DNA from: Cyanophora paradoxa CCMP329 | Taxonomy: Eukaryota; Plantae; Glaucophyta | Direction of reading: 5' to 3' | Assembly (NCBI GenBank): GCA_004431415.1 | Contig: QPMI01000494.1 | Location: 1 to 64,000, forward strand | Length of the DNA stretch: 64,000 nucleotides | Part shown: piece by piece, positions 1 through 18,248 of the stretch | Layout of the letters: each line of letters starts with the position of its first letter | Position numbering within the stretch: position 1 is the first letter of the stretch | Made by a program: the position numbers and the translations under genes | The notes under the pieces: model-generated | What the model saw: only the letters and a program-made list of their open reading frames with translations | Databases searched by the model: none | What the model was told of the DNA's origin: nothing

Positions 1-944
1 TTCATGCTGGGATTAATCGCCTATGCCCTGAGTGGTTTGACAGAAAATCAGAGATACACTTGCTGGACTGGAATTGGAGCAAATGGGAAATCACTGCTCC
101 AAGAGTTGGTGAAAGACACATTTGGTGAGTATTATGGGTCACTGGACATGACATATTGGACTAAACCCAAGAAGAGTTCGTCAGAGGCTTCCCCAGAACT
201 CGCTTGCATTCTTGGTAAACGAATTGTTTTCAGTAATGAAGCAGAAGATGGTGATATGCTTCAACTGAACAAAATCAAACAGGTTACTGGTGGAATGAGA
301 TGAAGGTTCGAGCTCTTTTCAAAGATCTTGTTACATTCATTCCCATGTTCCAGTTGTTCTTGTCCACAAATGACAACTGGGAATCAGTAAACCAGATGCA
401 GCAATCCAAAGGCGAATTATCTACTACCGATTCGAAAATGTCTTCAAGGTCGATCCTCAGCCTGGTGAGAAGAAAGCAGACACCACTCTATGCGCCTAAT
501 GAAGAATGATGACGATTATAAAATGGCGCATATGTCCATTCTCCTGGAAATGTGGAGAACCCATTCTCTCAATGAATTCGTCACCAAACCACCCCAGTCC
601 ATTGTTGATCAAGGTGTTGAATATTTCAATGAGAATGACAAGATTGGAGAATGGATTCGTGAGAGTTATGAACTCACCAAGAGTCAAGGGGATTTCGCCA
701 CAAGTGAGTCCATTATCAGTCACTTTAAGATGACACATGGCAAATCGATGAAAAATTCACAGAATGCACTATCTTGAAGAGACTTCGCGAAGTCTTTAAT
801 GTGAAGGCTGAGAGAAAGCGAGTCAAGGTGTTCTTGCTCGTGCTACTTTGGGATCAAAAAGAAGCATAGTCGCAAGTTAGTGATGACAGTGATGTTGAAG
901 GTGGGATGAGTAAACAAAACAGAATCGATTCTAATACTGATTGA
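1..944 (+). CDS. D5-like (SF3) primase-helicase, C-terminal part; frameshifted across ORFs 4-303, 300-509, 490-777 and beyond
   Basis: Walker A TGIGANGKS, 'SPELACILGKRIVFSNE' (Walker B region), 'KQVTGG..MKVRALFK', 'FLSTND' (motif C). All typical of poxvirus D5/phage P4 alpha helicases. N-terminus lies outside the window. Confidence 0.85.
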
Positions 945-981
945 ATTTCTTATTTTTAAAAACCTTACTGTAAATGGTTTG

Positions 982-1115
982 TGTGACAGCTGTGACACCT
1001 TTTAATTGGTGTGACGCCTGTGACGCCTGTGACGCCTACTTTCAACTTTTAAAATTTCCAAAATCTACAAACCTCTGAAAACAGGTGTACAGGCGTCACA
1101 GGCGTCAACCCAATA
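982..1115. repeat. Inverted iteron unit, copy 1 (TGTGACGCC x3 ... AT-rich core ... GGCGTCACA-like x2-3)
   Basis: Directly visible. Near-identical to 16554-16710 and 16866-16990. Lies just downstream of the helicase gene. Confidence 0.85.
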
Positions 1116-1249
1116 ACCACAGACCCCCCCTGTGGGTCGATGACTTTTCGATTCTTATCGGACAATATAAAAAAACGTATCGTAAATCGGGTGTTTGACA
1201 AAAATTGACTGGCGATTTAAGGGATCATTGCGTTTTCCTTTGACTTGAC

Positions 1250-4200
1250 AGAACAGGATTATTCGACGAAATTCAGCGGCAGCTGGTCGAAAAGAATGAT
1301 ATTGCAGAGGTAGCGGAATATATTGCAAAGATCAGAGCCAGTAATGGTAGACCATATCAAAAAGAAGCGATGTATGCAAGCAGACTCGACACAGTAAATG
1401 TATATGTCCCAAAGGCACGAATGTGCGAATTATCAGAACCTGAAAAATTCGAAATGCGTTCAAATTGCCCAAAATAATATGTTCCCTTAAAGTAAAAGAT
1501 GCCCGCCAATCCAATAGAATCATCAAAGAGAAGAAAACGAAATACTCGGTCTTTAGGAACCTTTAGTTACTGGTGAATTACAGAATTCGAATATGATCGC
1601 CAGCAGCAATCTTGGATAGGAGACCAAGGTTATCTCAACTCACAGAAATTACAAATCGCCTCTATGATCGTTTTGAGAAAATGGAGGATTCAGGATGAAG
1701 TTTAAGGTTGGGAACAATTGAACCCGAGATTGAGGATGGGAAGCAATGAACAAAGCATATTCTTGTTAACCTATCGAGCAAGAGGGGAGGTTATCCAAGA
1801 TGGATTGAATCTGAGAGAATTGCACCACTCTACCTCAGAGACTCAGACAGAAACTCCAAGACCTGAGAGCAATTAAGACTCGGTTGACCTTCATTTGTAA
1901 TCACCAAAGTGAGTGATCCAAGGTGTGGATCACCAATTCATTTACAGTGATTACTTGTCATCACAAGTCACGAAATATTGATGTTGACTGCGAAATGCCC
2001 TTCAACCATGCAGGAGCAGATGATGCAGGTGGACAGTTACAGACTGGATCGCATTGAGATGCTGAGAGTGGTAATAATGTCTTATGCTCCTGTGGGTGGT
2101 GCTTCTTCTCAACTCCTGAGTGATTGGATCAAAGAGAGCAACTGTGAATGTCAAGAATATTGATGGTCAAGATTGCTTCAAGTATGCAATCTTGGCTTAC
2201 CTGCACCGAAATGATATTAATAAACACAGAGCAATGAACCAGCCAGTATAGAAGATGTTAAACGAACTCAATTTCGAAGGCATCCAGTTTCCAGTGCCTG
2301 TGATGCAGAGGTTATTGATCGATTGAGGAGCAGAACCTGAACTGAGTATCAACATTTATGGTGCAGATAATCAAGCACAGTGTTTCTATCCTCTCCATCA
2401 ATCCAGCAACCCGAGGAGAAAGACCAAGATCAACTTTTATTAATCGAAAACGAAGAGGATGATAGAGGGCATTATATCACCATCATGTCTCTGAGTAGAC
2501 TCCTGAAAACCACCTTTGATAAAGCCCATGATGGTCGCATTATTACTGTGAGACCTGCCTGTCTCGTCAGAACTCAGGAGAAGCTGACATTCACTTAGAA
2601 GCCAATCGCTGCATGATTGGAGGAGAGCAAAGTAAATGCCCGAAATCTGGAAGTCAAATTGCATTTGGGCTTCAACACCTTCGCAAAACTGTGTGGCTTC
2701 CCACTATCTGCTATGTAAAAATGGATAGTCACTCGGTTCAATTGATGAGAACCGCAGTAAAAGAGAGGTAAATCGGTTTCTCTAACAGTTGTGATGGGGG
2801 ATGAGGTGATCTCTCATCATTTCGAGGGATCAGATCCACTTGGTGCTCTGTTTACCACTCTCACAGAGATCAGACCCCAAGTAATCCGCACTCTATTCAC
2901 CATATTCCATGCACCCACTCACAGAAGAGCAGAAAGCACAATACAAGATCACTAAACACTGTTATATCTGTGCCGAACGATTTACCATGAGAATTTCCCA
3001 GTGAGAGACCATTGTCATCAATCAGGAGCATTTATTGGGAAAGCATGCCGAAACTGCAACCTCCACAGAAGAATCTCAAAGCAAACCAAGGTAGCAATTG
3101 TGGTGGATCACATGGATGAATGTGGACACGAAATATTCGCAAAATGCACAGCAAGATGATAAACTTCGTGTTGAGATTCTGAGCAAGAATTTCGACCAAT
3201 ACCTCTCCCTGCAATGGGGCATGTGGAAATTCATTGATGCTTCGCATTTCATGGACTTCAGGCAGTGGATGCAATGATCTAATGGGTAAATTCCAGACTT
3301 TCCGAGAATTGGCGTTTCCCAATATGGATTAGATCCTGCCCATTATGTTTCGGCTCCTGGATTATCCTGGGATGCAATGCTAATTTATACCAGAGCAAAG
3401 ATTGAGCAGATCAGTGATGTAGGGCAATACGAATTTATGAGAGGGCAATTCGAGTGGGTTTGCTACAATGCCTACTCGATATGCAAAGGTGGAAACCCAG
3501 ATGACCATATAGTTCTCTTGGATGCAAATAATCTGTATGGTTATGCTCTCAGTCAAGAACTGCCCATTGGCGATTTTCGATGGGAAGATGTCTCAGAGGC
3601 ACTTAAAGAGACCCCAGGACGAAGTGCCTTCATTGAAGTTGACCTGGAATACCCACAAACTCTCACAGATCATTACGATTTTCCACTTGTAGTGAATAAA
3701 GAGCATGTCACCACCGAAATGCTGGGTGGGTATCAAAGAAGTTACTGGATATCACAGGTGAGAAGATAAGCAAAGACCCAAACTCACAGCAACATTCTCA
3801 CCCAAAAACAACTATGTGATTTCCAACCTCTCTTGGTCTATCTTGTGAGCAAAGGTATTATATCACGAAGGTTCACAGGGTTCTCTCATTTGCAACCTCT
3901 GCATTTATGAATAGTTATATTGATCTAAATACGAAATTGAGGCGCCAATCTATGTCCAGATTCGAGAGTGACTTCTTTAAATTAATGAACAATGCAATCT
4001 ATGGTAAATGCCTCGAATCATGCAGGGGTCGCTCTGTGGTAAAGATTGCAAACAGTGAGAAACTCTGCAAGAAATATGCTGCAAGTCCACTCATCAAGGC
4101 AACCAATGTATTAAACGAAAATGCTGTTGCCTTTGAGATGTATTCCAAGCATGTTCACTTAGATAAACCTGTTGCAATTGGTGCTTTCGTGCTGGATTTG

Positions 4201-4716
4201 CGAAACTCCATAATAGCAGGTTCTTTTTTGATGTGGTGAGGAGAACTTGGGAAACAGCAGAGCTACTATTCCATGATACAGATTCTTTCTGCTACTGCTG
4301 CATACCAATGATCTAAATAATGAGATGAAGCGAATTTCTGAACACCTGGATTGCAGTAATTATGATCCCTCCCACCTCTCTTTGATAGGAGCAATCGTTT
4401 GATTCCAGGTAAATATAAAAACGAGTTTCCAATGCAAAGATTGTGGAGTATGTAGTCTGAGATCGAAACTCTATGCTTTCAGAACTGAGACCTTTGATAA
4501 AATAAAGATGTCTGGGACTTCCTCAAAAGAGTTCACTTTGATGATTTCAAAAGATGCCTGTTTGAAGGCATCACCAAAACAGTAGCAGTAGTAAACAAGC
4601 GAAGGCAAGACCACAACCTATATGATTTGGAGAGCAGAAGGGTGGCTCTAAACCAACTCGATAGCAAAAGGAAGATATTAGACGATGGAATTCACAGCAT
4701 TCCATTTGGGCTCTAA
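1250..4716 (+). CDS. Protein-primed DNA polymerase B, Polinton type, with endonuclease-VII-like insert; many frameshifts; start uncertain
   Basis: Fragments read YAPVGG...CFKYAILAYLH, LNFEGIQFPV, 'HYITIMSLSRLL', CYIC...VRDHCHQSGAFIGKACRNCNL (~2955-3070), motif A LLDANNLYGYALSQELP, motif B FFKLMNNAIYGK, motif C HDTDSF (~4270-4290), and C-terminus DGIHSIPFGL* ending at 4716. Confidence 0.9.
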
Positions 4717-4899
4717 TCTACTTCATCAATCTTTCTTTTTCTTTGGTTTCGCTCTCCAAGAAGTAACAAACCGCGAATTAAATGCAGCAGCCATATACAT
4801 CTTAATCCTGGATCATTGGGCTCAATTGCAAAGTAGTTGGGAATTGTGTTCTCCTTCCACACAGAGTCTTGCATTTATTATATGAGAGATAAGGTAAAG

Positions 4900-6293
4900 A
4901 TGCCTTCTACACAAATAGGATTGAGACAACCACCAAGAATTGTGAGAAAAGAGGCAATTGAAGATCGAGGGAATATTCTGCCCATCACAGTTCCAGTGGA
5001 GGAGAAGAGCAGTCGAATATTGAAAAGATCAGAGATGGTCAAGCAATTAATCCCAGAGACCCTCCCAGCTGAGACAGCACCAAAAGAGTCGAAGATTGCT
5101 AAGAAGTTCTATGATCCCAGGACAGGCTACAAGGGATTTACTGCAATGAGACAGGAACTACCAGAGGAGAACTACAAGAAAATGAGAGAATGGTATGATA
5201 AGCAGGAGGTTGTCCAAATTAATGCACCTACCCTATCTCGAAAGAGAGATCCCATGATTCCAATTAGGCAACCCCTTGATACATATGTGATTGATCTGCT
5301 CTTCTTTCCTGCATACAAAAAGCAGAATGATGGTTATGATACATTTATGAGTGCAATGGAATCAACCTGAGAACAGGGTTCATTATTCCAATGAGAGACA
5401 AAAGTGCTCTTACTACACTTGCAGCATTCAAGCAACTTGAACAGAGAGTCCCCAGACCAATTGTTCGCATTCAGAGTGATAGTGGAAGCGAATTTACCAA
5501 TGTGTTATTCACAGATATTGGGAACGAAATTCATTGAGCATCAACTAAGTGATGTTGCAGATCACAGAACCCAAGGTCGGATTGAAGCCTTTAACAGACA
5601 GATCAAGAGATTAATCACAAACTACTGCATTGCAAATAATACTGCACGATTTTTTGATGTGTTGGGTGATATTGAGTATAATTATAATATACCATCCACT
5701 CTGCAACCAAGAGAAAACCAGCAGAGACCACAGAAGCCCACTACAAAGAGATAGTGAATATGGAGGATCAGAGATTCAAGAAATCGATTGAGTATCTTGA
5801 TGCTCTGAAACCTGGAATGTTTGTGAGAGTGAAAGTTGAAAAGAATCCATTTGCAAAGCAGGGTGTTAATTGGTCTCGAATTGTTATAGTGTGGAGGGCA
5901 GAGAGGGCTTCAAATTCAGAATCAGAAGTCCCAGTGGTGAGATAGTTGATGGTAGATTCGCTTTTCATGAACTGCTTCCCATTAAAGGTGTTGAGTATCA
6001 TGAAACTCCCACAGTGGATGCCCTTGAACAGGCAAAAGAGGAAGCCAGGGTTGATTCAGCAATCAGAAAGGAGGGCATAGAAAAAGCAAGTGAAGTTCCA
6101 AAAGAACCCCTCACAGAAGCAGAGCACAAAGAAGGGCAGAGTAGAGAAAGAGTTGAAGAAGTTGACCATAGCAGGAACCCAGAAATTATCAGAAGTTAAC
6201 AGTCAGAGATGGTATAATGACTTTTCAACCACCAAGGAAACATATACTGCACCCCAAACTCGATTTAATTTACGAAGTGGTCAGAGGAAATAG
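4900..6293 (+). CDS. Retroviral-type (rve, DDE) integrase of the Polinton family; frameshifted across ORFs 4837-5370, 5404-5754, 5754-5945, 5870-6199, 6090-6293
   Basis: 'FYDPRTGYKG' N-terminus, D1 in YVIDL, D2 in QSDSGSEF (alternate frame ~5470-5495), E in GRIEAFNRQIKR, then YN..H and 'PGMFVRV...F.KQG.NWS'. No chromodomain recognised. Confidence 0.88.
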
Positions 6294-6294
6294 A

Positions 6295-6573
6295 TTAACA
6301 ACGCTTTCGGAATCTCTTAGACCTCTGGCGAATTTTCCTCATTTGTCTATCTTTTTCAATAATTTCCAAGAAGAAAGTTTCAAGATTTGAAACCAGTTGG
6401 TAATTATAAACAAAGAACAGTCTCACATGCTCTGGCTGTGACATGAAGAAATTGTAATAGAAAGCAGTTTTGAAATCATGGATCCAGTCTGATTGGGGAG
6501 CATGGATGATAGCAGGGTCTTGGTAGATGGGATCCATAGCAGAAGTTGAGAGAATCCAGAAAATCCTTGTCAA
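6295..6573 (-). CDS. Small hypothetical viral protein with basic C-terminus (probable start MDPIY at 6537)
   Basis: Open frame filling the gap between integrase and patatin genes. No recognisable motif. Confidence 0.4.
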   Translation of the reverse strand: MTRIFWILSTSAMDPIYQDPAIIHAPQSDWIHDFKTAFYYNFFMSQPEHVRLFFVYNYQLVSNLETFFLEIIEKDRQMRKIRQRSKRFRKRC

Positions 6574-6577
6574 TTTT

Positions 6578-8081
6578 TTATTTTGTTAGTGCCCGATCTC
6601 GACGAAACCTGATAGCTGCTGCCGAGAGGATTCCGAATCTGCTTTCAGAATTGAAAACGGAGCAGTTGGTAATAAAATACATATGTATGACCGAGATTGA
6701 TGGAGTTTCAGTGATGTTTCGGTGAAGTTTCGGTGCGAAGTTTCGGTGAAGTTTCGGTGTGATGATAAATGACCAGGAAACACCATCTTGTGAGGTTGCA
6801 ACATTGAAGGTCTTAACAAAGGCATTGGTCACACCAGACCCATATGCAATTATAGATGCTACCTCATATATATATGGGAAGGATACTTGGAGATACTCAG
6901 TGGGAACACTCCATATCCCATCAGGAGCAGATGCATTTGCCTCCCAACCTGTTAAAGAAGGTCTTGCTTTAAATGCCTCCCTTCCAATTTTTGATGATGA
7001 AGCAGTGAATGCACCATCTGATAGAAGATACCAGTTAGCATCAATGGGAGGTATATTATTCAGAGTGGATGATATATAGAACCTTGCAGGGTTCTTGATT
7101 TCGTAATTTGCAACCAGTAAATCACAGAGTCTATCAATCATTACTGTGTTTGCTGCTATATACATTTCGGTTGCATCTATCATATCAGGGATCTTAGAGG
7201 TATCATCCAGAGAGTTTACTATGGTCTTTGGAAGTGGAACAGAGAGTCTATAATATCTTGCATATCCTTGGTCATCATTATATGGGAGAAACTCTTGCAT
7301 CTTTTCCAGGGCTGAGAGTTCACTTGCAGCCATCAACATATTAATTAATGGACTCCCAGAGGTCGAAGCAATCCATGAGAGAATGCCCCAGCTGTTGACA
7401 TCTTCATAGGAATATCCCACATTTGGGGCATCTGTTTCATTGACCTCACCACAGGATATACTGATCACAATTATATCATCATCATCATCATAGATCTTTT
7501 TAGCATGGCTGTAACCACATACACTGGGATTGTTGTTACCTGATATTGCACCATCAATTAGAGACATCCCATCATAGTTCACAGGTGAGAAGTAAGTTGG
7601 TGCAGCAGAGGTGGATCTTGCAGCAATCTTGCTGGGATGGATTTGTAGGAGTTATCATTGGTGATAAAAATGGCTTCATGCTCACAGTGTCAAAACTTGT
7701 GATCACTACATCTTTTAGAGAGTCTTGAATGAGAGACTCACCAGTAACAGTGAGAATGGCTGTCTCCAATGGGGTCACATCATACTTGGTGTTGAAAAGG
7801 GCATTATCTATAATATTTCTGGGATTTGCAAAGATTAATGGAAGTTGATTGAGATATGTTGAATGCAAATCGGTAGCAGTGAGTTTGGGTTCGTTTGGAA
7901 ATTCGAGATTTTTCACATTGAGACCAATCGCAATAATCCCACCAGTGGATGTTCCACTCACCAGGTCAACAAGGTCTATTACTCTTTTTCCAGTTCGAGT
8001 TTCGATTTCTTTTAGCAATCTCGTAATAATTATACCACGAGCTCCCCCACCTGAGAGACTGAGAATTACACGAAGGGGCAT
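6578..8081 (-). CDS. Patatin-like phospholipase fused to a discoidin (F5/8 type C)-like domain; one or more frameshifts near 7575-7670; C-terminus apparently replaced
   Basis: LSLSGGGARG, nucleophile GTSTG, catalytic LIDGA..NNPS. Then FTASSS...AFKAR...W...EYLQVSF...V..I..YG...FVKTFNVATSQDGVSW, the FA58C pattern. Probable start MPLRV at 8081. Confidence 0.85.
6705..6761. repeat. Five tandem 11-13 bp units GTTTCGGTGAA at the point where the discoidin domain breaks off
   Basis: gtttcagtgat/gtttcggtgaa/gtttcggtgcgaa/gtttcggtgaa/gtttcggtgtg, directly visible. Confidence 0.75.
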
Positions 8082-8130
8082 CTTTACTTTACTCAAATTT
8101 AATAAATCTCTATAAGTAGAGTAAACAGGG

Positions 8131-11100
8131 ATGAGTTTCAATTATCCAGCAAACCTGCAAACCATTCCTTCATCAGGAAGAGGGAAGGCAGATAACAAAC
8201 ATGTAAATTTCGATAACTTGACAGCCAGAGGGTCAATCTCAATCGACCATAGTGCAGATGAACCCTCAAAGACTCACCCAAGAATGCATGCACTTTCAAT
8301 AAACGAAATGGATCCTGAAAAAGAGGATGTGAGTGTTGCTTTCAGCATGGGGAATGTGAAATCGAATCAGGTAGCCCAGATTAAAGCAACCAGGAGCAGA
8401 CCAAGAAAACTGAAAACCAGTGGAACCCATCCAGATATTCCAACTCGATTCGATAGTGGAAGGTTGATATTCAATGTTCAAAATGAGAAGGGTGGGCATC
8501 AGAGTGGTTTAAGAATCTATAATGAAGGATCAAATGCAATTGCACAAATTCCCGAAATAGTACAGATAGCACCCCATGGAGAGACCAACAAAATCGAGTT
8601 CACTAACAATGTTTATCCACGAGATATTGTGGCGAATTCGGCTTCTAATGCGCAATTCGGTTTCCAACTACCAAGTGATACAGCAAAGAATAAGGCGTCT
8701 ATCACTGTCAACAGTAGCCCCACTCAACCAGTAACAATTCATTTACATCCAGACCTTGTCGAAATGGATAGGCACCTTTTACCTCTGGTAACTAATACCA
8801 AAGATCTTGGTATCAGAACCAGGCAATGGCGAAATATCCATGGAAGCAATGTCTATGCAAATGGAGAGAAACTTGTAAGTGAGAAGACCATAAGAGAGAT
8901 CTTTGAATATTATGGACCTGTCCCAGTTCCCTTTCCTCTTCCATGGGATCCACCAGATTTAACACCAAAAAGCAACCAGGAAGAGAATACACAGCAGATG
9001 AGACAGTTCCCTTTGGGCAGCACATTGTGAGTTGGGAGCAGGTTCGAAATAAACCTATAATTGAACCGAGAAAGCAAATAGATGAGCAATATTTACCACC
9101 TGAAATCGATATTTTGGAGCTTGACGAATACCAATTCGTTCCAGATGAGGAGGAATACCTACCTGATGGTTTCGACCCACAGGAGTATGAATATGATCAA
9201 TATGACCCCAATGAGGAAGAGTATTTACCAGATGGTTTAGATCCACAAGAGTATGAATATGAGCAGAATTATGAACCCCATGAGGAATATTTAGCTGATG
9301 GTCTCGAACCACCAGTTGTGGATTATGAGCAACCTTATGAACACCATGAGGAATTATTACCAGATGGATTTCGACCTGAGATTTGGGAGTTCTTTCCAGA
9401 TTGGGAGCAGATCAACAATAAACCAGCCAGATTTCCACCAGAGGATCACAACCATGACTGGGATGAGATCTTAGGGAAACCAGCGAAATTCCCACCAGAG
9501 GATCACAGGCATGATTGGGGTGAGATTGATGGAATCCCTACTGAGTTTCCACCAGAAGACCATTTGCATATTTGGAGTGAAATACGAGAACAACCCACTT
9601 TTGCATCAGCAGGTAATGTATTATTAGGAGATATTAACAATGGTGTGAGTCTCTATCAAAATATAGACACACCAGCAAGATTACAATTAAATGATTACTA
9701 TGTGAATCGAAAGGGAATAGATGCAGGAACCACAATGGAAGGCGAATTATACATTAGACCCCCTACAAGAAATGGAATATTGGGGCTTGGTGGTGGTATT
9801 GAAATCAAAGACACCAAACCAGGTATCTATCTGACAAGTTACTTTGCAGATGACATCCCAATGACAGGAGGATTGATCTCTCTACCATCTGATCCAGCAA
9901 ACTATGATGATAAAAACGCTGCAATCCAAATTAATGTCACTGATGTGAGTGATTTGGATGGTTCAAGACCGAAATTAATATTTAGCAGAGAGAGATTGCT
10001 ACCCAATGCACTTTTGGGAAACCGAGACGACTATAAACAATGCGAAGTTGCATGGATTAAAACGAATTATAATGGTGGAGTTGGTGAGGGACTCTTAGAA
10101 ATCAATCAGAGGGCAGCAGCAAAGAATATTCATAATGAGACTATATCAAGAGTGGTTACAGAGGATTACCTTCAAGCCCAAAACTACATAGATGAAACAG
10201 AACTGAACACAATCATTGCAGGTATAAACATTGGTGTGACAGGGGATTACCTCCCTCTAACAGGTGGGATAATTGATGGAACAGTAACAGCATGCAACTT
10301 CTTTGTCCATACTGAAAGCAATCAAACCTTCCCTGTTGTCCATCCAGGAGGTGAATATGAGATACCTGATGATCCAGCTATAATGCCCATTAAAATTGAT
10401 CTACCTTCTGATTATGTAGGAAGGGGTGAACTGAAAACCATCTCTTTCACAGGAGATTATAATGATCTCCTGAATAAACCTACTGCTGCAAATCTGCATC
10501 CTGTTGCATTTTCGGGAAGCTTTCTTGATCTTAATAATAGATCACACAATCACACAAAGGCAGAGATCACAGATTTCGCACACACTCACACAAAATCACA
10601 AATTACAGATTTTGCACACTACCACACAAGAGCAGATATTACGAATTTCGCTCACACTCATGTTAAATCTGAGATCTTAGATCTCGGAAATGTTGCATAT
10701 GTTGGTCACACCCATACCAAGGCAGAGATTACAGATCTTGGAAATGTTGCATATGTAGGTCACACCCACACTAAGGCAGAGATTACAGATTTTGCACATA
10801 CTCATGATTGGAATACAGATATTTATAACAAACCAGCGATTTTCTCGGGCAACTACAATGATCTGACCAATAAACCCACCCTTGATCCCTTTACAGCAAA
10901 TAATATCACTGCAAATGCAAACCTTCTCATTGGATCAGGTTACTTTCTCGATTATGACCCATATATTATGCCTGATCCTCCTGTTATTTGGAATTTCCAC
11001 AATTCAACCCTTTCTACTAACTCTATATCTTACTATCAGGATAAAACCCTACTTGTTCGTGGAAATGCATATGCAAGAGAAATGTGGGTCATGGATCCTC

Positions 11101-11447
11101 GGGACAATTCAAAGGTTACTAAGCTGGCTCCTCAATACATGCTTGATAACCTGATTAGAAAAGGGAGACATGAAATGACAATTGCAAATCCTCAAATTGG
11201 GGGCAGTTCAGCAAGGCAAAACCATACCATTACATTAAATTGGAGTCCTGCCTTTGCATCTGCTCCATCTGTTGTTGTGACATTGCAGGGATTACCTGCA
11301 ACAAATGTAGAAATCGACTACAAAATAGGGATATCAAGCAACTCAACAACCTCAACCACAATTAACCTTGTTATTTGGGCAGCAGGATGGGTAACCATTC
11401 AGCCACAGTGGCTTCAAATTGCAATCCATTGGATAGCATCAGCATAA
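8131..11447 (+). CDS. Large phage-tail-fibre-like virion protein (ORFs 8131-9030 and 8943-11447, probably one gene joined at A5 8967-8971)
   Basis: DLGIRTRQWRNIH motif, acidic EEEYLPDGxDP repeats, FPPEDHxHDWxEIxGKP repeats, YLPLTGG, F(S/T)GxYNDLxNKP, about seven HTHTKAEITDFA-type repeats. C-terminal beta domain (WSPAFASAPSVVVT...IHWIA) resembles fibre-tip/H-type lectin-like folds. Confidence 0.75.
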
Positions 11448-11472
11448 TAAAGATTCTCACACTATTACAAAG

Positions 11473-12543
11473 ATGACCTCTCTATTAGAGATTCCAAATT
11501 ATGAACTTGCAGCCAAATCACTACACAGCACCTCTCATGGAGTAGTTGATTCAACCCCTGGGTATATTTGCACTGAAACTTCAAGTAATACCTCTTTCAC
11601 AGAGAATAATATACTCAGAGTTAAAGAGATTAGATGTGATCGAAATGGAGGCAAGATAAGAACCACAGGAATAATTATCTCGAATAAAAATCAAGTTCAA
11701 GCAGGTCAAGTAGTCCCCGATTCAGCAATATATGATAATGTGGGTGGATTTACCACAGCTCAGATAGTTACTTTTGGTAACACAAGTAATAATTCCGCTC
11801 TTGTTGTCAAGAGTGGAGGAGCCTACATTGGTGATGGAGCAAATGTAGCAGGAACTGTCACAGCTAATCAATTAAATGTGAGTGGGACAAGTTCATTTAC
11901 AGGATTGATGACCTTCAATGGTGGACTCTTGGGAAATGTTAGCGTTGAAACTCGAAAAGCTACAACAAGAGTTAATGCACCTGAGATGGATAATGGGACA
12001 GATGCAAATGTGAATTATAAACGAAACGGAAATACCATTTTCACTCTCGAAAAGACAATAACAGATCTGAAAGCAATCACAATCCCGGAAAATAGTGGTC
12101 TGAAACGATCCTATTGTCCAAGAATGAATATATCAAGACAAGCTCCTGGTTTGACAGGGTCCATAATACTTACAGCTGGAACACCCTTTAACTTTATAAA
12201 TGGAGCTTATCTTGTAAACAATGAAGGAAACTTTTCATCCACAAAATTTACAGCTCCTGTTTCCGGAGTATATAGGGTGTTCTTTGCATGTATGAGAGCT
12301 GGCACAACCTCTTATACTCATATTGCTACCAGCATTTATTTAAATGGAAATCCTACAACCATCCAAACAAGGGTTTCAATGCCGTCCGCAGGGATTTCTA
12401 ATACATTTGTAACTCCAATTTCATATGAAATTTTACTTTCTGTTATTGAAGGTGACTCCTTTGATATACGCAATTCTTCTGGAGCCAGTCTTCAATTTGA
12501 TATCAGATACTATTTTTCTTGTTATCTTGTTACTGCTACATAA
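11473..12543 (+). CDS. Fibre-like paralogue 1: shared N-terminal module plus C-terminal C1q/TNF-like domain
   Basis: N-terminal EIRCDRNGGKIRTTG...SGGAYIGDG shared with three downstream genes. C-terminal 'NNEGNFSSTKFTAPVSGVYRVFF...FSCYLV' is the C1q signature. Confidence 0.8.
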   Translation: MTSLLEIPNYELAAKSLHSTSHGVVDSTPGYICTETSSNTSFTENNILRVKEIRCDRNGGKIRTTGIIISNKNQVQAGQVVPDSAIYDNVGGFTTAQIVTFGNTSNNSALVVKSGGAYIGDGANVAGTVTANQLNVSGTSSFTGLMTFNGGLLGNVSVETRKATTRVNAPEMDNGTDANVNYKRNGNTIFTLEKTITDLKAITIPENSGLKRSYCPRMNISRQAPGLTGSIILTAGTPFNFINGAYLVNNEGNFSSTKFTAPVSGVYRVFFACMRAGTTSYTHIATSIYLNGNPTTIQTRVSMPSAGISNTFVTPISYEILLSVIEGDSFDIRNSSGASLQFDIRYYFSCYLVTAT

Positions 12544-12565
12544 TATTATCTGTATAATATAAAGA

Positions 12566-13588
12566 ATGTCCACACAAATAGCAGTTCCTGTTTTCTGTTA
12601 TGCCGCCCCAAAAATACATCAACTGAACCATACAGTAACAGATGCAACACCTGGGTTTATTTGCACAGAAACAACAGGGGCTGATTCGTTTTCACAAAAT
12701 TCTGTGATTAGATGCAAAGAAATTCGATGTGATCGCAATGGGGGAAAAATAAGAACCACAGGACTCATTGTATCTAACAAGAACCAAGTCCAATCAGGTC
12801 AAATTGTTTCAGATACAGCAATTTATGACAATGTGGGAGGGTTCACCACACCCAAAATAGTTACTTTTGATAATACAATTAATAATGCTGCTCTTTCAGT
12901 TAGAAGTGGAGGGGCATATATTGGAGATGGGGCAAGGATTGATGGAACTCTAACAGCCAATCAAGTAAACATTACAGGAACAAGCACATTTACAGGTTCA
13001 GTAACAGCCAATGGAGGCATAAGTATTCCAGAAACAACACAATCGATAATAACAGCAACTTCCAAGGTGGTCACACCTGAAATCGATACAGGAGCAAATG
13101 TGAATCTTGTTTTGAAACGCAACAGTGATATTATGGCTACTCTGGAAGCCAATCGCTTGACAATCAACACAAATTGTTATTTAAAATATGACTATCAGCC
13201 TCGATTTTCTGTTCAACTTAATTATCCTCATGTTGCTACCAGTGAAACTGCTCTTATCAATTGGGGGGTAGTGTTTGTGAATAATAGGGGGGCATTCAAT
13301 GTCAGTAATGGAAGGTTCACTGCTCCTGTTGCAGGTCATTACAGATTTACAGCATATACCCATTCAACATCAAGTAGTCCAATAAGTCTCTCTTTAAAAG
13401 TAAATGACCAAGACCCAGGGGGTCAAAGTATTATAACACAAAATAACTCCACTCTTACGAATAAACCGCTTTACATTAGTGTAATTCTCAACATTGCTAT
13501 GGGTGAGTATATAACACTTGTAACAAATAATGGGGGTAGCTACACAAATCGAACAACATTCACAGGTGAACTTTTGAGTGTCACATAA
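12566..13588 (+). CDS. Fibre-like paralogue 2: shared N-terminal module plus C-terminal C1q/TNF-like domain
   Basis: N-terminal ~150 aa highly similar to 11473-12543. C-terminal 'GAFNVSNGRFTAPVAGHYRFTAY...TTFTGELL'. Confidence 0.8.
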   Translation: MSTQIAVPVFCYAAPKIHQLNHTVTDATPGFICTETTGADSFSQNSVIRCKEIRCDRNGGKIRTTGLIVSNKNQVQSGQIVSDTAIYDNVGGFTTPKIVTFDNTINNAALSVRSGGAYIGDGARIDGTLTANQVNITGTSTFTGSVTANGGISIPETTQSIITATSKVVTPEIDTGANVNLVLKRNSDIMATLEANRLTINTNCYLKYDYQPRFSVQLNYPHVATSETALINWGVVFVNNRGAFNVSNGRFTAPVAGHYRFTAYTHSTSSSPISLSLKVNDQDPGGQSIITQNNSTLTNKPLYISVILNIAMGEYITLVTNNGGSYTNRTTFTGELLSVT

Positions 13589-13610
13589 ATTTTCTCTTTA
13601 TAAAGTAGGA

Positions 13611-13877
13611 ATGTCGAATATCTACCAAGTAGTTCTCTCAGATACTGAGAAGCTGGGAATGGAATTCTGTGCCGCTTCTGTTCAGGATTGGATTGATAAT
13701 GTGGTTCATAACAGGGCAAGAATTGCAATTGATGACATTGTTCAGAAAGAGATTCAATCTTGCATCTCATCAGGAGTTCAAATACCAACCTCAAAGGAAG
13801 CAATTGTATTACAGGCATTCCAAAGGGGAACTGTAAAGAAAGGCATCGAGTATAATAATGTCACAGAAGAACAATGA
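13611..13877 (+). CDS. Small helical protein resembling those following tail-fibre genes in aquatic phages (putative fibre partner/chaperone)
   Basis: Pattern 'LSDTE...A.SVQDWIDNVVHNRARIAIDDIV...C...GVQIP..KEAIV..AF..G.VK'. Resemblance is recalled, not searched. Probable start MSNIY at 13611. Confidence 0.6.
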   Translation: MSNIYQVVLSDTEKLGMEFCAASVQDWIDNVVHNRARIAIDDIVQKEIQSCISSGVQIPTSKEAIVLQAFQRGTVKKGIEYNNVTEEQ

Positions 13878-13912
13878 ACATTATTTTTCTTTCCTTCTTA
13901 GTAAAAGAAGCA

Positions 13913-14758
13913 ATGGGTGAATATAATCGAGTTCAACTGCCTATATATTCCCTTGGATCCCCTGCAATGCACTTTCGCCAGCATGAAGTTAATGATGAGG
14001 TTCGTGGTTTGGAATCTACTGAGAGACCCAATTCCAATGGTAACTCCTTTGATAAAAACTCGATTATTCGGGTTAAAGAACTGAGAGCAGACAAGAATTC
14101 TGGTGTGGTTAAAACCACTCGACTCCTTGTCTCAAATGCGAACTTCTTCCAACCAACTAATGGAGGTCCTGATGCTTACAGTGTTGATCTGAAAGCCCTC
14201 GATTTCGATAAGAATTCTGCTGCTGTAACTGTGAGATCAGGTGGCGCATTTATTGGTGGTGGTTGCAGAGTTTCAGGTCAGCTTTCATCCTCAATTTCGT
14301 ATAATGATGTCCCAGATACTCTTGAACAGAATGTTGAAGACCCCCAACGAATTCGATTATATATACCAGTTGCACAACAGCCACTTATTCAATTTTACCA
14401 AGGTTATACTGTCACACTTGAAAACTCTGAATTGATTGAAGGAACCAAAAGAGTAATGAGAGGGCTGGTCATTCCTTCTGCAATGCTTTCTTTATGTAGA
14501 GCCAACAATAACCAGCCAGGTCACAGATACAATTTCAGTGTTCAAGGATATGATCATTTCGGCACAGGGTTCTGTGTTTATAATAACAATTTCACCTATG
14601 ATCTGTTTGTTACAGATATTGGAAAATATACAATTACAGTTATGGGGATCAGAACAGATATAGCTGCTGTCTCAGCTCTTAGAGGTGTTACTCCTGATAC
14701 TCTTTCTCAAACAGGGTTTTACCAAGAGCCAGATGTAATTGATGACCCCACCCCATAA
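13913..14758 (+). CDS. Fibre-like paralogue 3: shared N-terminal module plus unassigned beta-rich C-terminal domain
   Basis: IRVKELRADKNSGVVKTTRLLVSNANF...VRSGGAFIGGG. Probable start MGEYN at 13913 (track start 13874). Confidence 0.75.
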   Translation: MGEYNRVQLPIYSLGSPAMHFRQHEVNDEVRGLESTERPNSNGNSFDKNSIIRVKELRADKNSGVVKTTRLLVSNANFFQPTNGGPDAYSVDLKALDFDKNSAAVTVRSGGAFIGGGCRVSGQLSSSISYNDVPDTLEQNVEDPQRIRLYIPVAQQPLIQFYQGYTVTLENSELIEGTKRVMRGLVIPSAMLSLCRANNNQPGHRYNFSVQGYDHFGTGFCVYNNNFTYDLFVTDIGKYTITVMGIRTDIAAVSALRGVTPDTLSQTGFYQEPDVIDDPTP

Positions 14759-14781
14759 ATTATATATTACTTTAATGTAAA

Positions 14782-15609
14782 ATGGCTGCCCCAGTAGAGC
14801 GAATTATTACACCCCAACTCTCATTAGCAGCACCTGCAAATCACGTTTTGCAGCATGCTACCTTTGATGATGTAGAAGGTCTCCAATCCACAGAAGTGCA
14901 ACCTACAATGAATACTTTTGGTTCCACCCACAAACTGAGATTGCAGGAACTCAGGTGTGATAAAAATAATGGTATAGTTAAGACAACGAAACTCCTTGTC
15001 ACAAATGCAAACTTTTCTGCCCATTATGGAGACCCAGACAGTTATGGTGATCCTCTTTCTACTTACTCTTTTGAATCTCGGTCGGGAGCTATTAACTGCA
15101 AAACGGGGGGAGCATATATTGGTGATGGTCTTCGGATTGGTGGAGCTGTTGGTGCGCCTCTTTTCGTAAATGATCAACCCAACCCCATTGATCCCAACAC
15201 CAGAATTCGCACCTATGTCCCCAGTATGAATGCACCATATATTATAAAGATCTTCCCAATTGTTGTGAATGAGCAGACATCAGTAGTTGATTCTCTTGTT
15301 GAGATTGGTGACCACTACAAGGTGGTTGTCGATATCCCACCAGATGTTTATGCTGTCTGTCAAGTGGAGGGTGGAACCCCAAATATTGCAGTTGTGATCA
15401 CCCCATATGACAATTTCGGAATCGCTTATCATGGAGTGAATTTCGGTCTTGAAGATTACCAGTTCTTGGTGAGAGCCACCAGATTTGGTATCTACAAATG
15501 CATTCTCTATGCTGAGAGAACCGATGCTATTGCAAGACAGAATACATATGCAGAGTATTACGGCACAAATCGATACTTCCCCATTTTCGGGCAGGATACT
15601 GCTCCATAG
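14782..15609 (+). CDS. Fibre-like paralogue 4: shared N-terminal module plus unassigned beta-rich C-terminal domain
   Basis: LRLQELRCDKNNGIVKTTKLLVTNANF...KTGGAYIGDG. C-terminus is distantly similar to paralogue 3 (RIR.Y.P, YD.FG, G.Y......RTD). Confidence 0.75.
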   Translation: MAAPVERIITPQLSLAAPANHVLQHATFDDVEGLQSTEVQPTMNTFGSTHKLRLQELRCDKNNGIVKTTKLLVTNANFSAHYGDPDSYGDPLSTYSFESRSGAINCKTGGAYIGDGLRIGGAVGAPLFVNDQPNPIDPNTRIRTYVPSMNAPYIIKIFPIVVNEQTSVVDSLVEIGDHYKVVVDIPPDVYAVCQVEGGTPNIAVVITPYDNFGIAYHGVNFGLEDYQFLVRATRFGIYKCILYAERTDAIARQNTYAEYYGTNRYFPIFGQDTAP

Positions 15610-15634
15610 AAATCTCAGGTATATATAGAGAGGG

Positions 15635-15907
15635 ATGGATGATAAAACAAAGAAATTCATAGAATCTGCAATGATGGTTCATGGTGATGCTAAATTCGAT
15701 TATAGTGAGACAGTGTATAAGAAAGCACAAGAGAAGGTCTCTGTTAGATGCCTCAAATGCAACAAGATCCTCCAAACCTACCCATTTAATCATGTAAGGG
15801 GAAGTGGATGCAGAGAGTGCAACAAGAAATCCTCTCATGCTTACAGAAAAAAGACTACATCAGGAATCGTGATAGATGATAAACCAGTAGTATTATATTT
15901 CGATTAG
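15635..15907 (+). CDS. Small Zn-ribbon protein (DUF723-like repeat unit seen in phage/giant-virus endonuclease-associated proteins)
   Basis: FI..A..VHG..KFDYSET.Y.....KV.VRC..C......P.NH.RG.GC..C pattern. Confidence 0.65.
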   Translation: MDDKTKKFIESAMMVHGDAKFDYSETVYKKAQEKVSVRCLKCNKILQTYPFNHVRGSGCRECNKKSSHAYRKKTTSGIVIDDKPVVLYFD

Positions 15908-16053
15908 ATCTTTGAGAGAGAAATGAGAATCTTTCCCCATTTTCCCTTGGTGATTATGCATGTGTCAAAGCAGTTTGGACAGGTCTTGTGGTAGTGCAGC
16001 AGAATGATATCCACCAACTCATAAGGTAGCACTCTTGCTAAGATGGTTCGCAT
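15904..16053 (-). CDS. 49-aa ORF with F-box-like start (LPYELVDIIL) and CxxCxxxC
   Basis: Manual translation MRTILARVLPYELVDIILLHYHKTCPNCFDTCIITKGKWGKILISLSKI*. Below the ORF-track cutoff; fills the intergenic gap. Confidence 0.35.
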   Translation of the reverse strand: MRTILARVLPYELVDIILLHYHKTCPNCFDTCIITKGKWGKILISLSKI

Positions 16054-16093
16054 TCTACCAATCGCGTTTTTAATTTTTCTAAATTATTCATAA

Positions 16094-16495
16094 ATGAATA
16101 CTCATCGAGGCTTCCATGTGATGCTGGATTACAAATTCAGAACCCAATTAGCAGTAGGAGTGGAAGACTTGGAGACAACAACCAGGTGGTTAATGCAGTT
16201 CTTGCAAACTATTATTCAAGAGCAAGGTATTCGAGTAGTTCACAAGCATTGCGAGATTTTCGATGGTGGTATTTCTCCTCCTGGTTTTGCAATGGTTCTT
16301 CTGCTGGATGAGAGCCATTGCACTGCTCACTGTTACTCAAATGAAGGTATGCTGGCGATTGATATATTCAGTTGTGGATTGGAAGCAGAGAGAAAAACCA
16401 CGAGAGTATCTCATGAGATAGATGCTCGAATAACAGGTGTGTTTTCAGGGTTGGAGAAATCGGAGAAACATAGAGTATTGCGATTTCCGAGTTAG
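16094..16495 (+). CDS. speD: Prokaryotic-type S-adenosylmethionine decarboxylase proenzyme (SpeD/SpeH family, pyruvoyl-dependent)
   Basis: G.HVMLD N-terminus, PPGFAMVLLLDESHCTAHCY with the E|SH autocleavage site, and AIDIFSCG. 133 aa fits the compact class 1B form. Confidence 0.85.
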   Translation: MNTHRGFHVMLDYKFRTQLAVGVEDLETTTRWLMQFLQTIIQEQGIRVVHKHCEIFDGGISPPGFAMVLLLDESHCTAHCYSNEGMLAIDIFSCGLEAERKTTRVSHEIDARITGVFSGLEKSEKHRVLRFPS

Positions 16496-16553
16496 TTGAC
16501 ACTGAGAAATTCAGAATTTCAGATGGTCTTACTGAAAATGGTCAGATAATCGG

Positions 16554-16710
16554 GTGTGATACCTATTTAATTGACTGTGACGCCTCTTTAATTGACTGTG
16601 ACGCCTGTGACGCCTGTGACGCCTACTTTCAAACTTTTTAAAATTTTCAAAAATGACAGACTTCTGAAAACAGCCGTCACAGCCGTCACAGGCGTCACAC
16701 CCAATTAAAA
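16554..16710. repeat. Inverted iteron unit, copy 2
   Basis: (tgtgacgcc)x3-4, core tactttcaaactttttaaaattttcaaaaatgacagacttctgaaaaca, then (g[c/g]cgtcaca)x3. Confidence 0.9.
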
Positions 16711-16865
16711 ATGGAATCTCTTTCTCTTACTGAGATTTTCGAAAATATATTCTTGTCTTACTGAAATCCGTCTTGTGACACCTCTGACACCTACAAAACA
16801 CTATCCATTAATCAACCTTTTTGAAAATGCGAAGTTGTCTTACTGGAAATGGTCTGCAATTTCGC

Positions 16866-16990
16866 TGTGACACCTAATTTAATTGAGTGTGACGCCTGTG
16901 ACGCCTGTGACACCTACTTTCAAACTTTTTAAAATTTTCAAAAATGACAGACTTCTGAAAACAGGCGTCACAGCCGTCACAGGCGTCACA
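16866..16990. repeat. Inverted iteron unit, copy 3
   Basis: Core identical to copy 2, flanked by inverted iteron triplets. Confidence 0.9.
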
Positions 16991-17111
16991 GACATTCCAC
17001 CCCTCTTACTGACTTTCTCAAAAACAAAACTATCTCTTACTGAATATCATTTGAATACTACCTGTCACACTTGATCTCAATTATTCTGTTTTATAGAACA
17101 TATGCAATCTA

Positions 17112-17358
17112 ATCGATTGTTCAATTGGAGACCATGCAACTCTGTGACAAGTTTTAGGTGCAAAAATGTAAATCCGCAATCCCATCGATTGTTTAATTGG
17201 ACGTGATGCAGTTCCGATATATTCCAATAGAAAATCCCGCAATATAATCGATTGTTTAATTGGAGATAATGCAACTCTGTGACAGTTTTTGGGTGCAAAA
17301 ATGCAAATCAGCAATCTCATCGATTGTTCAATTGGACACAATGCAACTCTGTGACACT
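17112..17358. repeat. Subterminal tandem repeat, four units (spacing 72/63/72 bp), ATCGATTGTTYAATTGGA...ATGCAACTCTGTGACA
   Basis: Unit starts at 17112, 17184, 17247 and 17319. Confidence 0.85.
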
Positions 17359-17673
17359 TTTTGCGTTTTTCGATACAGAATGGGCGGTGGTCTACTTCAA
17401 TACAAGAGAGATATATCGAGTTTTTGCGAATTTATGCAATTTAATCGCGATTATATCGATCTTTAAGTAGTTTAATGCAAATTAATCGCAGATTTGTATG
17501 TAATCGACAAAGAACATAATCAATCGATATAAGATCAATTGATTCAATCGTAAATATGCATAAAGTTAAACGCGTTTTTCATTTTTAATACAAAGTTTGC
17601 ATTAATTTATACAAAGTTTGCATAAAAAGTTAAAGAAATTAATCGATAAATACGTATTTTAGTATTAATTTTG

Positions 17674-17768
17674 ACACATATGTATAAACTTATTTAAATC
17701 CTGAGTGAATCGAGATCGCGAAGCGATCGAGATGAACGAGGGATTTAAATAAGTTTATACATATGTGT
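17674..17768 (+). other. 95-nt terminal hairpin: 28-bp perfect stem, T.G pair, three tandem GA/GA mismatches and a GCGAAGC cap; abuts the virus-host junction
   Basis: 17674-17701 acacatatgtataaacttatttaaatcc is the exact reverse complement of 17741-17768. The interior pairs as t-ga-gt-ga-atc-ga-gatcgc[gaa]gcgatc-ga-gat-ga-ac-ga-g. Confidence 0.9.
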
Positions 17769-18248
17769 GCGCCCCCCGGGCCCACCGCACTGCGGGACTG
17801 CGGCACGAGGGATCCGGATGGTCGGCATTGGCCGCCGGGCGCCAGACTCTGAGAGCTACCAGTATCCGCCGCGCGCGGCACGGCCGATACATATCGATGA
17901 TCAGAAATCAGGCCCTGAGGATCACTTGAGTGACACTGACTCAGTGACTCTCACTGAGTCAGACAGATCGGCGCCTAGTCACATAGTAGTTGCCGCCTAC
18001 TGCAGCTGGGTAGGCTGCCTAGCGCCCGCGGCCAGTCGCCGCCAGATCCCATCAGGCCCCCGACCGGTACCATCCCTCGATTTGTGATCATCGGATTGCT
18101 TTGTTGATTTTTAATATTAATATTACTACCTACGGGGGGTTCGCCCTTCCGAGTCGTTCCGACGGGCTTCCGTAGTCTCTCAAAAACAAATATAGCAGTA
18201 TTAGCATGCAGACAATCCCAAAAGAGATTTAATTATAGCAGACAGCAG

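Follow-up and report, generated by a model that had tools for sequence, protein, structure and literature searches.

Excision, end replication and re-integration of Polintons and Polinton-like viruses (PLVs) form a model that is still without a direct test. A jumping-back mechanism has been described (PMC5175343), and (AC)3A is a Maverick end motif linked to jumping-back in one fish family (PMC8097293). The residue that links the terminal protein (TP) to DNA has been placed in an α2-β4 loop (10.1101/2024.03.18.585575). Palindromes were reported beside the target-site duplication (TSD) in Halocafeteria seosinensis virophage subtypes 1, 2, 5 and 6 and PLV subtype 4, and the main text of the same preprint proposes hairpin priming for these virophage and PLV palindromes (bioRxiv 10.64898/2026.07.28.741278).

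Fold-back ends that also use a terminal protein are described in Streptomyces. The 3' overhang of the Streptomyces telomere ends in a 13-nt fold-back, Palindrome I; the TP-linked copy has GCTTCGC and the overhang has GCGAAGC (PMC5449611, PMC4513846). GNA loops closed by sheared G:A pairs resist single-strand nucleases, truncated tips are repaired by fold-back, and the telomere is TP-primed (PMC5449611, PMC4513846). The d(GCGAAGC) mini-hairpin has a Tm of 76 °C, a stability that nearest-neighbour parameters fail to explain (PMC13037366). GA-AG tandems show strong sheared stacking (PMC8163305), and the (GGA)2 motif forms a guanine zipper between sheared G.A pairs (PMC11014236). In the sources at hand, GCGAAGC and G.A motifs have natural roles in phage ssDNA origins, N4 promoters and satellite III DNA; the ends of eukaryotic DNA viruses are not among them.

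Here we analyse 64,000 nt of Cyanophora paradoxa CCMP329 DNA (contig QPMI01000494.1, positions 1 to 64,000; the window), following up a prediction of a hairpin with tandem G.A mismatches and a GCGAAGC cap at the edge of a viral element. A multi-copy Polinton-like element ends exactly in this 95-nt palindrome.

Results

The hairpin and its G.A core

Tandem sheared G.A pairs are stable in the Y-GA-R context (Y, pyrimidine; R, purine). Base-by-base pairing of positions 17674-17768 bore out the original prediction of a 28-bp inverted repeat with G.A steps and a GAA triloop. The two arms (Table 1) form a perfect stem of 28 Watson-Crick pairs, followed inward by a T.G pair, GA/GA, 2 bp, GA/GA, 3 bp, GA/GA, 6 bp and the GAA loop. 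As had been claimed, the GA steps, at 17703, 17707, 17712, 17729, 17734 and 17738, have the Y-GA-R context in six of six cases. The cap is the sole GCGNAGC on the + strand of positions 1-17768. The arm motif occurs twice in the whole window, as the two arms themselves, and a scan of the 64 kb found no other long G.A hairpin, only two short ones near 50.7 kb that look like chance. An Rfam search of the hairpin gave microRNA-family matches only, far below gathering scores.

Folding z-scores were -11.75 for the + strand and -10.38 for the - strand, with none of 200 shuffles equally stable. ViennaRNA energies were near-equal between the + and - strands (-35.8 and -35.4 kcal/mol with flanks, -32.5 and -30.6 kcal/mol without). 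The sequence had been predicted to fold on the + strand only. This does not hold for the 28-bp stem, which forms on both strands. It would hold for the tip, which, as we infer from published chemistry, is much better folded on the + strand than on the - strand, an asymmetry that ViennaRNA did not reproduce. If the scaffold is taken as given, all three tandem mismatches would be GA/GA on either strand with a chance of about 6e-7, or 3e-8 for three GA/GA steps plus a GNA loop. Among 200,000 shuffled cores, 141 had three in-register GA/GA steps and none had 11 Watson-Crick pairs as well.

Table 1. Features of the element and its right end in the window (strand "." where none applies)
Feature	Position	Strand	Basis or remark
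D5-type primase-helicase (superfamily 3), C-terminal part, frameshifted	1..900	+	PHROG 1156, E 2e-19; three-frame translation
Polinton-type protein-primed DNA polymerase B (pPolB), many frameshifted pieces	1815..4713	+	alignments to pPolBs
rve (retroviral-like DDE) integrase, frameshifted	4933..6287	+	P0001 alignment, 60% and 43%
Two ~120-nt inverted-repeat units of 9-nt repeats	16587..16994	.	repeat search
Multi-copy variable subterminal region	17000..17673	.	107-nt direct repeats 17104-17210, 17239-17345
Inner arm of terminal palindrome	17674..17701	+	28 nt, AT-rich; pairing
Core 1 (T.G, three tandem GA/GA steps, 6 bp, GAA loop)	17702..17740	+	pairing; exact contigs
d(GCGAAGC) mini-hairpin cap	17718..17724	+	motif scan
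Outer arm; last base is the element end	17741..17768	+	pairing; flank junctions
Host flank at baseline depth	17769..18146	.	405-nt contig

The end of a multi-copy element

Among the 21 public short-read runs listed, 20 contain the stretch, all of one organism. Four runs were compared over 17000-18200 and two (X2 and X6) over 17640-17789. Read depth, which does not equal copy number and is used here as a ratio only, falls across 17755-17789 from 8580 to 442 to 105.5 in X2 and from 2194 to 94 to 21.9 in X6. Four other flanks attach behind 17768, 17769, 17770 and 17776 (among at least 12 loose ends in X2 and X6). One of them diverges directly after 17768, which fixes the element end at this base. 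The depth collapse after 17768 and the other flanks joined at the stem base confirm the proposal that the hairpin is the exact element end. A 405-nt contig covers 17742-18146, from arm to flank, with zero mismatches in four of four runs; its 27 letters on the element side are below the 31-letter bridging rule.

Elevated depth extends inward from the hairpin to at least 17000, and contigs over 17000-17135 stand at 44-59 times flank depth (X1, X2 and X6), with many substitutions among copies. On the search for other copies suggested with the original prediction, short-read contigs show that the hairpin is common to many element copies. GC content is ~0.40 as far as 17.7 kb and, past 19 kb, mostly 0.5-0.75. 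As for the 6-bp TSD of Polintons, none of the four other flanks listed starts with the reverse complement of the first 5-6 bases of the window's flank. At the junction, from 17769, this flank and three of the four listed other flanks start with G, which hints at a target preference.

Genes of the element

The Polinton hallmarks, pPolB and an rve integrase, are both present and both frameshifted in this copy. The pPolB region carries TP-like D1, vOTU-like and endonuclease VII-like parts and is collinear with pPolBs of 1250-1380 aa. Its closest relative, P0152, has PF03175 and PF02945, and the P0152 model matches phi29 polymerase best. For the integrase, all six tested relatives of P0001 match PF00665, five of them above the cut-off; P0001 itself has zero Pfam matches. 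Other products of the AT-rich part are a patatin, an F5/8-C protein, tail-repeat and C1q-type fibre-like proteins, and a SAM decarboxylase. The patatin-like phospholipase gene (7572-8081) and the S-adenosylmethionine decarboxylase gene (16094-16495) lie inside the element. Four paralogous ORFs at 11473-15609 have a common N-terminal segment by eye; two have C1q-like heads and two are without a family match. They are probably fibre proteins with swappable tips.

The replication and integration genes in 1-6300 are riddled with frameshifts, and the ORFs of 6578-16495 are mostly long and open. The frameshifts could come from assembly error near the contig start or from selective decay. Three ~120-nt inverted-repeat units of 9-nt repeats were found, at 1000-1114, 16587-16709 and 16878-16994. 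The first directly follows the D5 helicase gene and the other two lie near the element end; judged by sequence, they are candidates for an internal origin or for iterons bracketing the gene block. No DJR major capsid protein, packaging ATPase or protease was found among 18 ORF pieces scanned with Pfam or 15 scanned with PHROGs; three ORFs are unassigned and the element extends past base 1. The same 18 and 15 pieces, from the element's 17.8 kb within the window, included no HUH endonuclease. General Pfam and PHROG scans of ORF pieces gave zero matches to Tap or Tpg.

The alignment between the window and P0152 starts at residue 122, ahead of the vOTU-like region. In its AlphaFold model (mean pLDDT 68, with blocks at 62-87 for residues 91-210), P0152 has an alpha/beta domain with a Ser in the α2-β4 loop before the last strand. 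The D1 linking loop is without the GSGW-like motif present in 50 of 56 aligned rows, and without a Gly or Pro nearby. The TP argument leans on this 46%-identical relative, and the pPolB of the present copy is broken. The element end reads 5'-(AC)2A on the - strand and is kept in both arm variants described below. None of the Maverick end motifs (AGT)2, (AG)3 and (AC)3A was matched; (AC)2A is AC-like but shorter. From the alignment and the model, the element appears to retain what protein priming needs, a D1-like region and an end repeat.

Stem covariation and conservation of core 1

A commoner sister variant of the arms was read from loose ends. Its inner arm differs from the window's at 17682, 17683, 17685, 17690 and 17691, and its outer arm (in the X6 record) at the partners 17751, 17752, 17757, 17759 and 17760. 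By hand comparison, the changes in the stem are compensated in five of five cases and core 1 is unaltered. A sixth difference, placed at ~17701 from contig ends, lies beside the T.G pair and is uncompensated. One contig links the variant inner arm to the G.A core (17674-17731, six differences; depth 4782 in X2 and 1416 in X6), and another with the exact core, 17703-17750, continues into the variant outer arm (depth 5193 in X2 and 1483 in X6). The depth of core words was 1690.6 against 1688.2 for the sum of the arm variants in X6, and 6013 against 5717 in X2; the arm variants are phased through the shared core 1 from these depths.

The stem thus covaries around invariant GA steps, an outcome for which the original prediction had asked us to look. 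That prediction had also named absence of the hairpin from other copies, occurrence as a host repeat, an element end elsewhere and unconserved GA steps as contrary evidence, and we found none of these. The terminal structure is real, conserved and selected.

A second core with the same polarity

In X2 and X6, the window's arm is joined to an unrelated second core at loose ends behind 17701 and before 17738. The second-core contig starts at 17672 (by subtraction), that is, in the same subterminal DNA, and its purine strand is directed outward as in core 1. The arm and subterminal DNA shared by both cores are compatible with terminal inverted repeats (TIRs), the left end lying outside the window. 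By the simplest overlap, the second core would be 29 nt, with three tandem GCGAAGC units between AGGA and GGAG. It could adopt a linear fold of A.G, a (GGA)2 motif, 2 bp, a (GAA)2 motif, 4 bp and a GAA loop; alternatively, it could form three mini-hairpins.

On the window's arm, the depth of the second core against that of core 1 is 810 against 935 in X2 and ~195-217 against 273 in X6. Near-equal depth on the shared arm is consistent with a single element whose left and right ends carry the two cores, and also with two subfamilies. The second core may be the other end of the element. Second-core contigs stop at a distance of 30 letters from the last and from the first arm difference; the data suggest that the second core is also paired with the commoner arm.

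In both unrelated cores, the same outward 3'-terminal strand carries purine-purine motifs and GCGAAGC. Two unrelated sequences that follow one rule with one polarity are the strongest evidence for a selected fold of the 3'-terminal strand. The idea of a strand-selected design gains from this, as the polarity of the G.A strand is fixed in two unrelated cores.

An even mixture of flip and flop isomers would be expected to break contigs at the core. For both cores, the contigs coming from the subterminal side enter the purine core without a break, a weak test with two discriminating 31-letter words. No flop isomer was seen in the two runs, and this is weak for the same two words and for the pruning or filtering of minor paths. 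Such loss of minor paths follows from the missing path between core 1 and the window's own outer arm and the flat depth over 17705-17729. Depth sums count flip and flop isomers alike and are therefore uninformative on isomers.

Searches beyond this element

The hairpin-core and arm patterns had 0 matches in the viral_contigs collection, and ORF 13874 and the integrase relative P0001 had zero related viral contigs. G.A hairpins of this kind were present at none of 30 loci of distant pPolB and rve relatives (322,554 bases; 20-44% identical), many of these loci being without element ends. A metagenome scan found seven unrelated loci with GA and GCGAAGC hairpins or arrays; the AT-rich terminal stem of the present element occurs at none of the seven. 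So far, G.A-capped ends are shown for this organism only.

The three-unit GCGAAGC motif matched eight viral contigs. On inspection, L011, L017 and L019 did not resemble Polinton ends; for the other motif contigs, the analysis covered local folding. In the phi29-like phage contig L017, GNA mini-hairpin motifs are clustered at 1-160 and 15960-16017, mostly on the end-directed strand. The idea that protein-primed phages generally have 3'-strand terminal mini-hairpins came from this contig and was dropped, the feature being seen in none of three related records (of 30 matches). The large- or giant-virus contigs L009, L010, L012 and L013 have tandem GCGAAGC arrays, with ~15 units or more in L009 and L013.

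The 87-nt hairpin at 654-740 of a plasmid-like metagenome contig (L022) combines seven tandem GA/GA steps with a GCGAAGC cap. Long purine-strand GCGA/GCGAAGC arrays occur in the GC-rich contigs L020 (~4840-5180), L021, L023, L025 and L026. The L020 array lies just beyond an 855-aa ORF, which we take from its motifs to resemble a TnpB/Fanzor-type nuclease. The PLV-like contig L048 has an inverted pair of 53-nt imperfect palindromes at 13-65 and 15222-15274. These flank ~15 kb of genes including an rve integrase, and their mismatches are not G.A.

Discussion

For the hairpin we infer a role as telomere cap, priming site or integrase substrate. Our preferred reading is that single-stranded replication intermediates carry a folded 3' cap, which is copied by terminal-protein priming in the manner of Streptomyces Palindrome I; we hold it tentatively, its probability falling a little short of even. 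By analogy, the folded 3' tip likely protects the ends of the free element and sets up their copying. The reading starts from the observed end position, multi-copy status, stem covariation, core conservation, second-core polarity and gene set. At the right end, the 3' terminus is supplied by the + strand, so the G.A strand is the one left single during replication. This 3' end would be exposed on a strand displaced during replication or, where the D5 helicase-primase initiates internally, as an overhang of the lagging strand. Once exposed, it would snap back into a hairpin stiffened by the sheared G.A pairs and the GCGAAGC cap. The folded hairpin would resist nucleases, and the inner arm would allow a frayed tip to be restored. 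The TP domain of pPolB would prime on the folded end through the (AC)2A repeat, the palindrome being copied without inversion. Finally, the rve integrase would insert the extended duplex end and leave the G.A strand outward in every copy.

Such a protein-primed cap is supported by the coincidence of stem base and element end, the five compensated changes out of five, the single polarity of the two cores, and the geometry, cap and polarity shared with Streptomyces. The D1-like region with a Ser in the linking loop of the P0152 model and the (AC)2A repeat in both arm variants are also in its favour, as is, weakly, the flop isomer unseen in two runs. Against it are the D1 loop without the GSGW-like motif, the broken pPolB, an end repeat shorter than the Maverick motifs, and the strand asymmetry absent from ViennaRNA energies. 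Furthermore, a fully paired 3'-OH beside template is a ready DNA primer, and self-priming must be blocked. If it is not, the snapped-back 3'-OH could prime the second strand directly in a rolling-hairpin mode and yield hairpin-closed replicative forms, opened at the stem base perhaps by rve 3'-processing that takes the 28-bp stem for the element end, with host repair perhaps unfolding the hairpin at integration. We consider self-priming unlikely, while regarding it as the main competitor. The 3' end pairs exactly with the first stem base, the arm covariation is consistent with fold-back templating, a nick at the stem base would preserve a single polarity, and the D1 linking loop is atypical; self-priming is also model D for palindrome-ended virophages and PLVs in the preprint text (bioRxiv 10.64898/2026.07.28.741278). 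The retained TP-like domain, vOTU Cys/His-type motifs and dinucleotide end repeat argue against self-priming, and in that text palindromes are tied mainly to non-pPolB elements (bioRxiv 10.64898/2026.07.28.741278). Classical rolling-hairpin resolution, as described, gives both flip and flop (PMC11575299); flop is unseen here in a weak test, and an HUH endonuclease is absent among the scanned ORF pieces (18 with Pfam, 15 with PHROGs).

The tip could otherwise be a landing signal that keeps SSB off and brings the D5 primase-helicase to displaced strands close to their 3' end, where the complementary strand would be started, as mini-hairpins at the G4, St-1 and alpha3 origins and ssiA are described to exclude SSB and aid primases (PMC13037366). 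The D5-type gene of the element and the similar GA hairpins or arrays in a plasmid-like contig and beside a Rep-like ORF are in line with this. We find it improbable, since it leaves the exact stem end at the terminus unexplained and the last bases are beyond the reach of an RNA primer; the primase domain, moreover, would lie outside the window. The hairpin or an extruded cruciform could also act as a mark in packaging, excision or resolution that is recognised by the integrase, by the endonuclease VII-like domain, or by a protein for packaging or telomere binding. PF02945 in P0152 agrees with such a mark, two caps could label left and right ends for polar packaging, and vaccinia hairpin mismatches are reported to be needed for I1 binding and maturation, not DNA synthesis (PMC8956199). 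Poxvirus ends, however, flip and flop and are structure-tolerant, whereas here the polarity appears fixed and the mismatches stabilising, and the part of the element within the window has no capsid or packaging genes; we give recognition alone little credence. A neutral by-product or artefact, whether accidental fold-back duplication, assembly chimera, host repeat or RNA hairpin, is largely refuted and very improbable. Accidental annealing is named as an alternative in the preprint (bioRxiv 10.64898/2026.07.28.741278), the + strand is also favoured by RNA parameters, and there are weak microRNA-family matches. Both halves, however, are exactly matched by short-read contigs in two independent runs, the chance of the G.A pattern is ~6e-7, the same rule holds in two unrelated cores, and high depth continues inward to at least 17000. 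A Helentron was also considered and rejected, because the high-depth DNA is continuous with the pPolB/rve element.

A broader possibility is a heterotelomeric PLV with a shared stem and two G.A-zipper caps at opposite ends, whose 3'-strand folds are read by the fused TP-pPolB. One cap would have the tandem GA/GA steps and a single GCGAAGC, the other three GCGAAGC units set in GGA/GAA purine motifs. We think this doubtful at present. If true, it would be a eukaryotic-virus convergence on the Streptomyces telomere solution, and the two caps would give the genome a polarity for replication or packaging.

With its built-in strand mark and its two natural variants, the G.A-capped end is a substrate short enough to synthesise. 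It makes single-stranded intermediates, protein- versus self-priming, and end polarity testable with oligonucleotides and long reads.

Several described ends can be compared with this one. Terminal fold-back and self-priming geometry are shared with AAV (PMC11575299), and functional mismatches with vaccinia (PMC8956199). AAV and poxvirus ends are described with flip and flop isomers, and AAV needs Rep nicking; here neither flop, in the two runs, nor an HUH Rep, in the scanned ORF pieces, was seen. As in the Halocafeteria virophages and PLV, a palindrome with a proposed role as replication hairpin lies at the extreme edge of an rve-encoding endogenous DNA virus. Theirs is 52 nt in the example given and mainly of non-pPolB elements, whereas the one here is 95 nt and goes with pPolB and a D5 helicase. 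Relative to the text of that preprint, the three tandem G.A steps, the GCGAAGC cap and the two core types are found only here, and the words 'mismatch' and 'flip' are absent from its text, figures and supplements aside (bioRxiv 10.64898/2026.07.28.741278). Its palindrome screen (gap limit 10, 4 mismatches, arm of 20 or more) would probably miss this hairpin. This suggests that palindrome screens with small gap or mismatch limits under-count such ends.

The original prediction spoke of a possibly undescribed terminal architecture. This was too broad for terminal palindromes with a hairpin-priming model, which are published (bioRxiv 10.64898/2026.07.28.741278), and appears to stand for the G.A design, which is unrecorded in the text of that preprint. 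No description of G.A-zippered ends of Polintons, PLVs or virophages was found in titles and abstract openings, mostly from outside the subscription literature, or in the accessible parts of PMC11296320, 10.1101/2022.07.28.501842, 10.64898/2026.10.13.758929 and PMC12085832. Palindromic ends are newly known as a class. In the literature searched, the G.A design and its fixed polarity appear to be undescribed, as do the second cap and its combination with a TP-bearing pPolB.

With Polintons/Mavericks, the element shares a pPolB with a D1/vOTU-like N-terminus, an rve integrase and a short dinucleotide end repeat (PMC8097293; 10.1101/2024.03.18.585575). Polinton/Maverick ends, as described there, are TIRs with 6-bp repeat motifs and no fold-back cap; the present element has a cap and a D5 helicase. 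The chemistry of both cores is that of d(GCGAAGC), tandem sheared GA/GA steps and the (GGA)2 zipper, as described for these motifs (PMC13037366, PMC8163305, PMC11014236). With the Streptomyces telomere (Palindromes I-IV, Tpg/Tap), it shares a 3' strand that can fold to its last base, GNA loops and sheared G.A pairs, here by sequence and polarity. The Streptomyces system, as described, terminates a bacterial chromosome or plasmid, has several short palindromes and employs a dedicated Tap primase together with Tpg. In the present case, one long stem ends an integrating eukaryotic element with a fused TP-pPolB, and the likeness is analogy, not homology. It suggests that bacteria and eukaryotic DNA viruses came independently to use sheared G.A chemistry in their telomeres.
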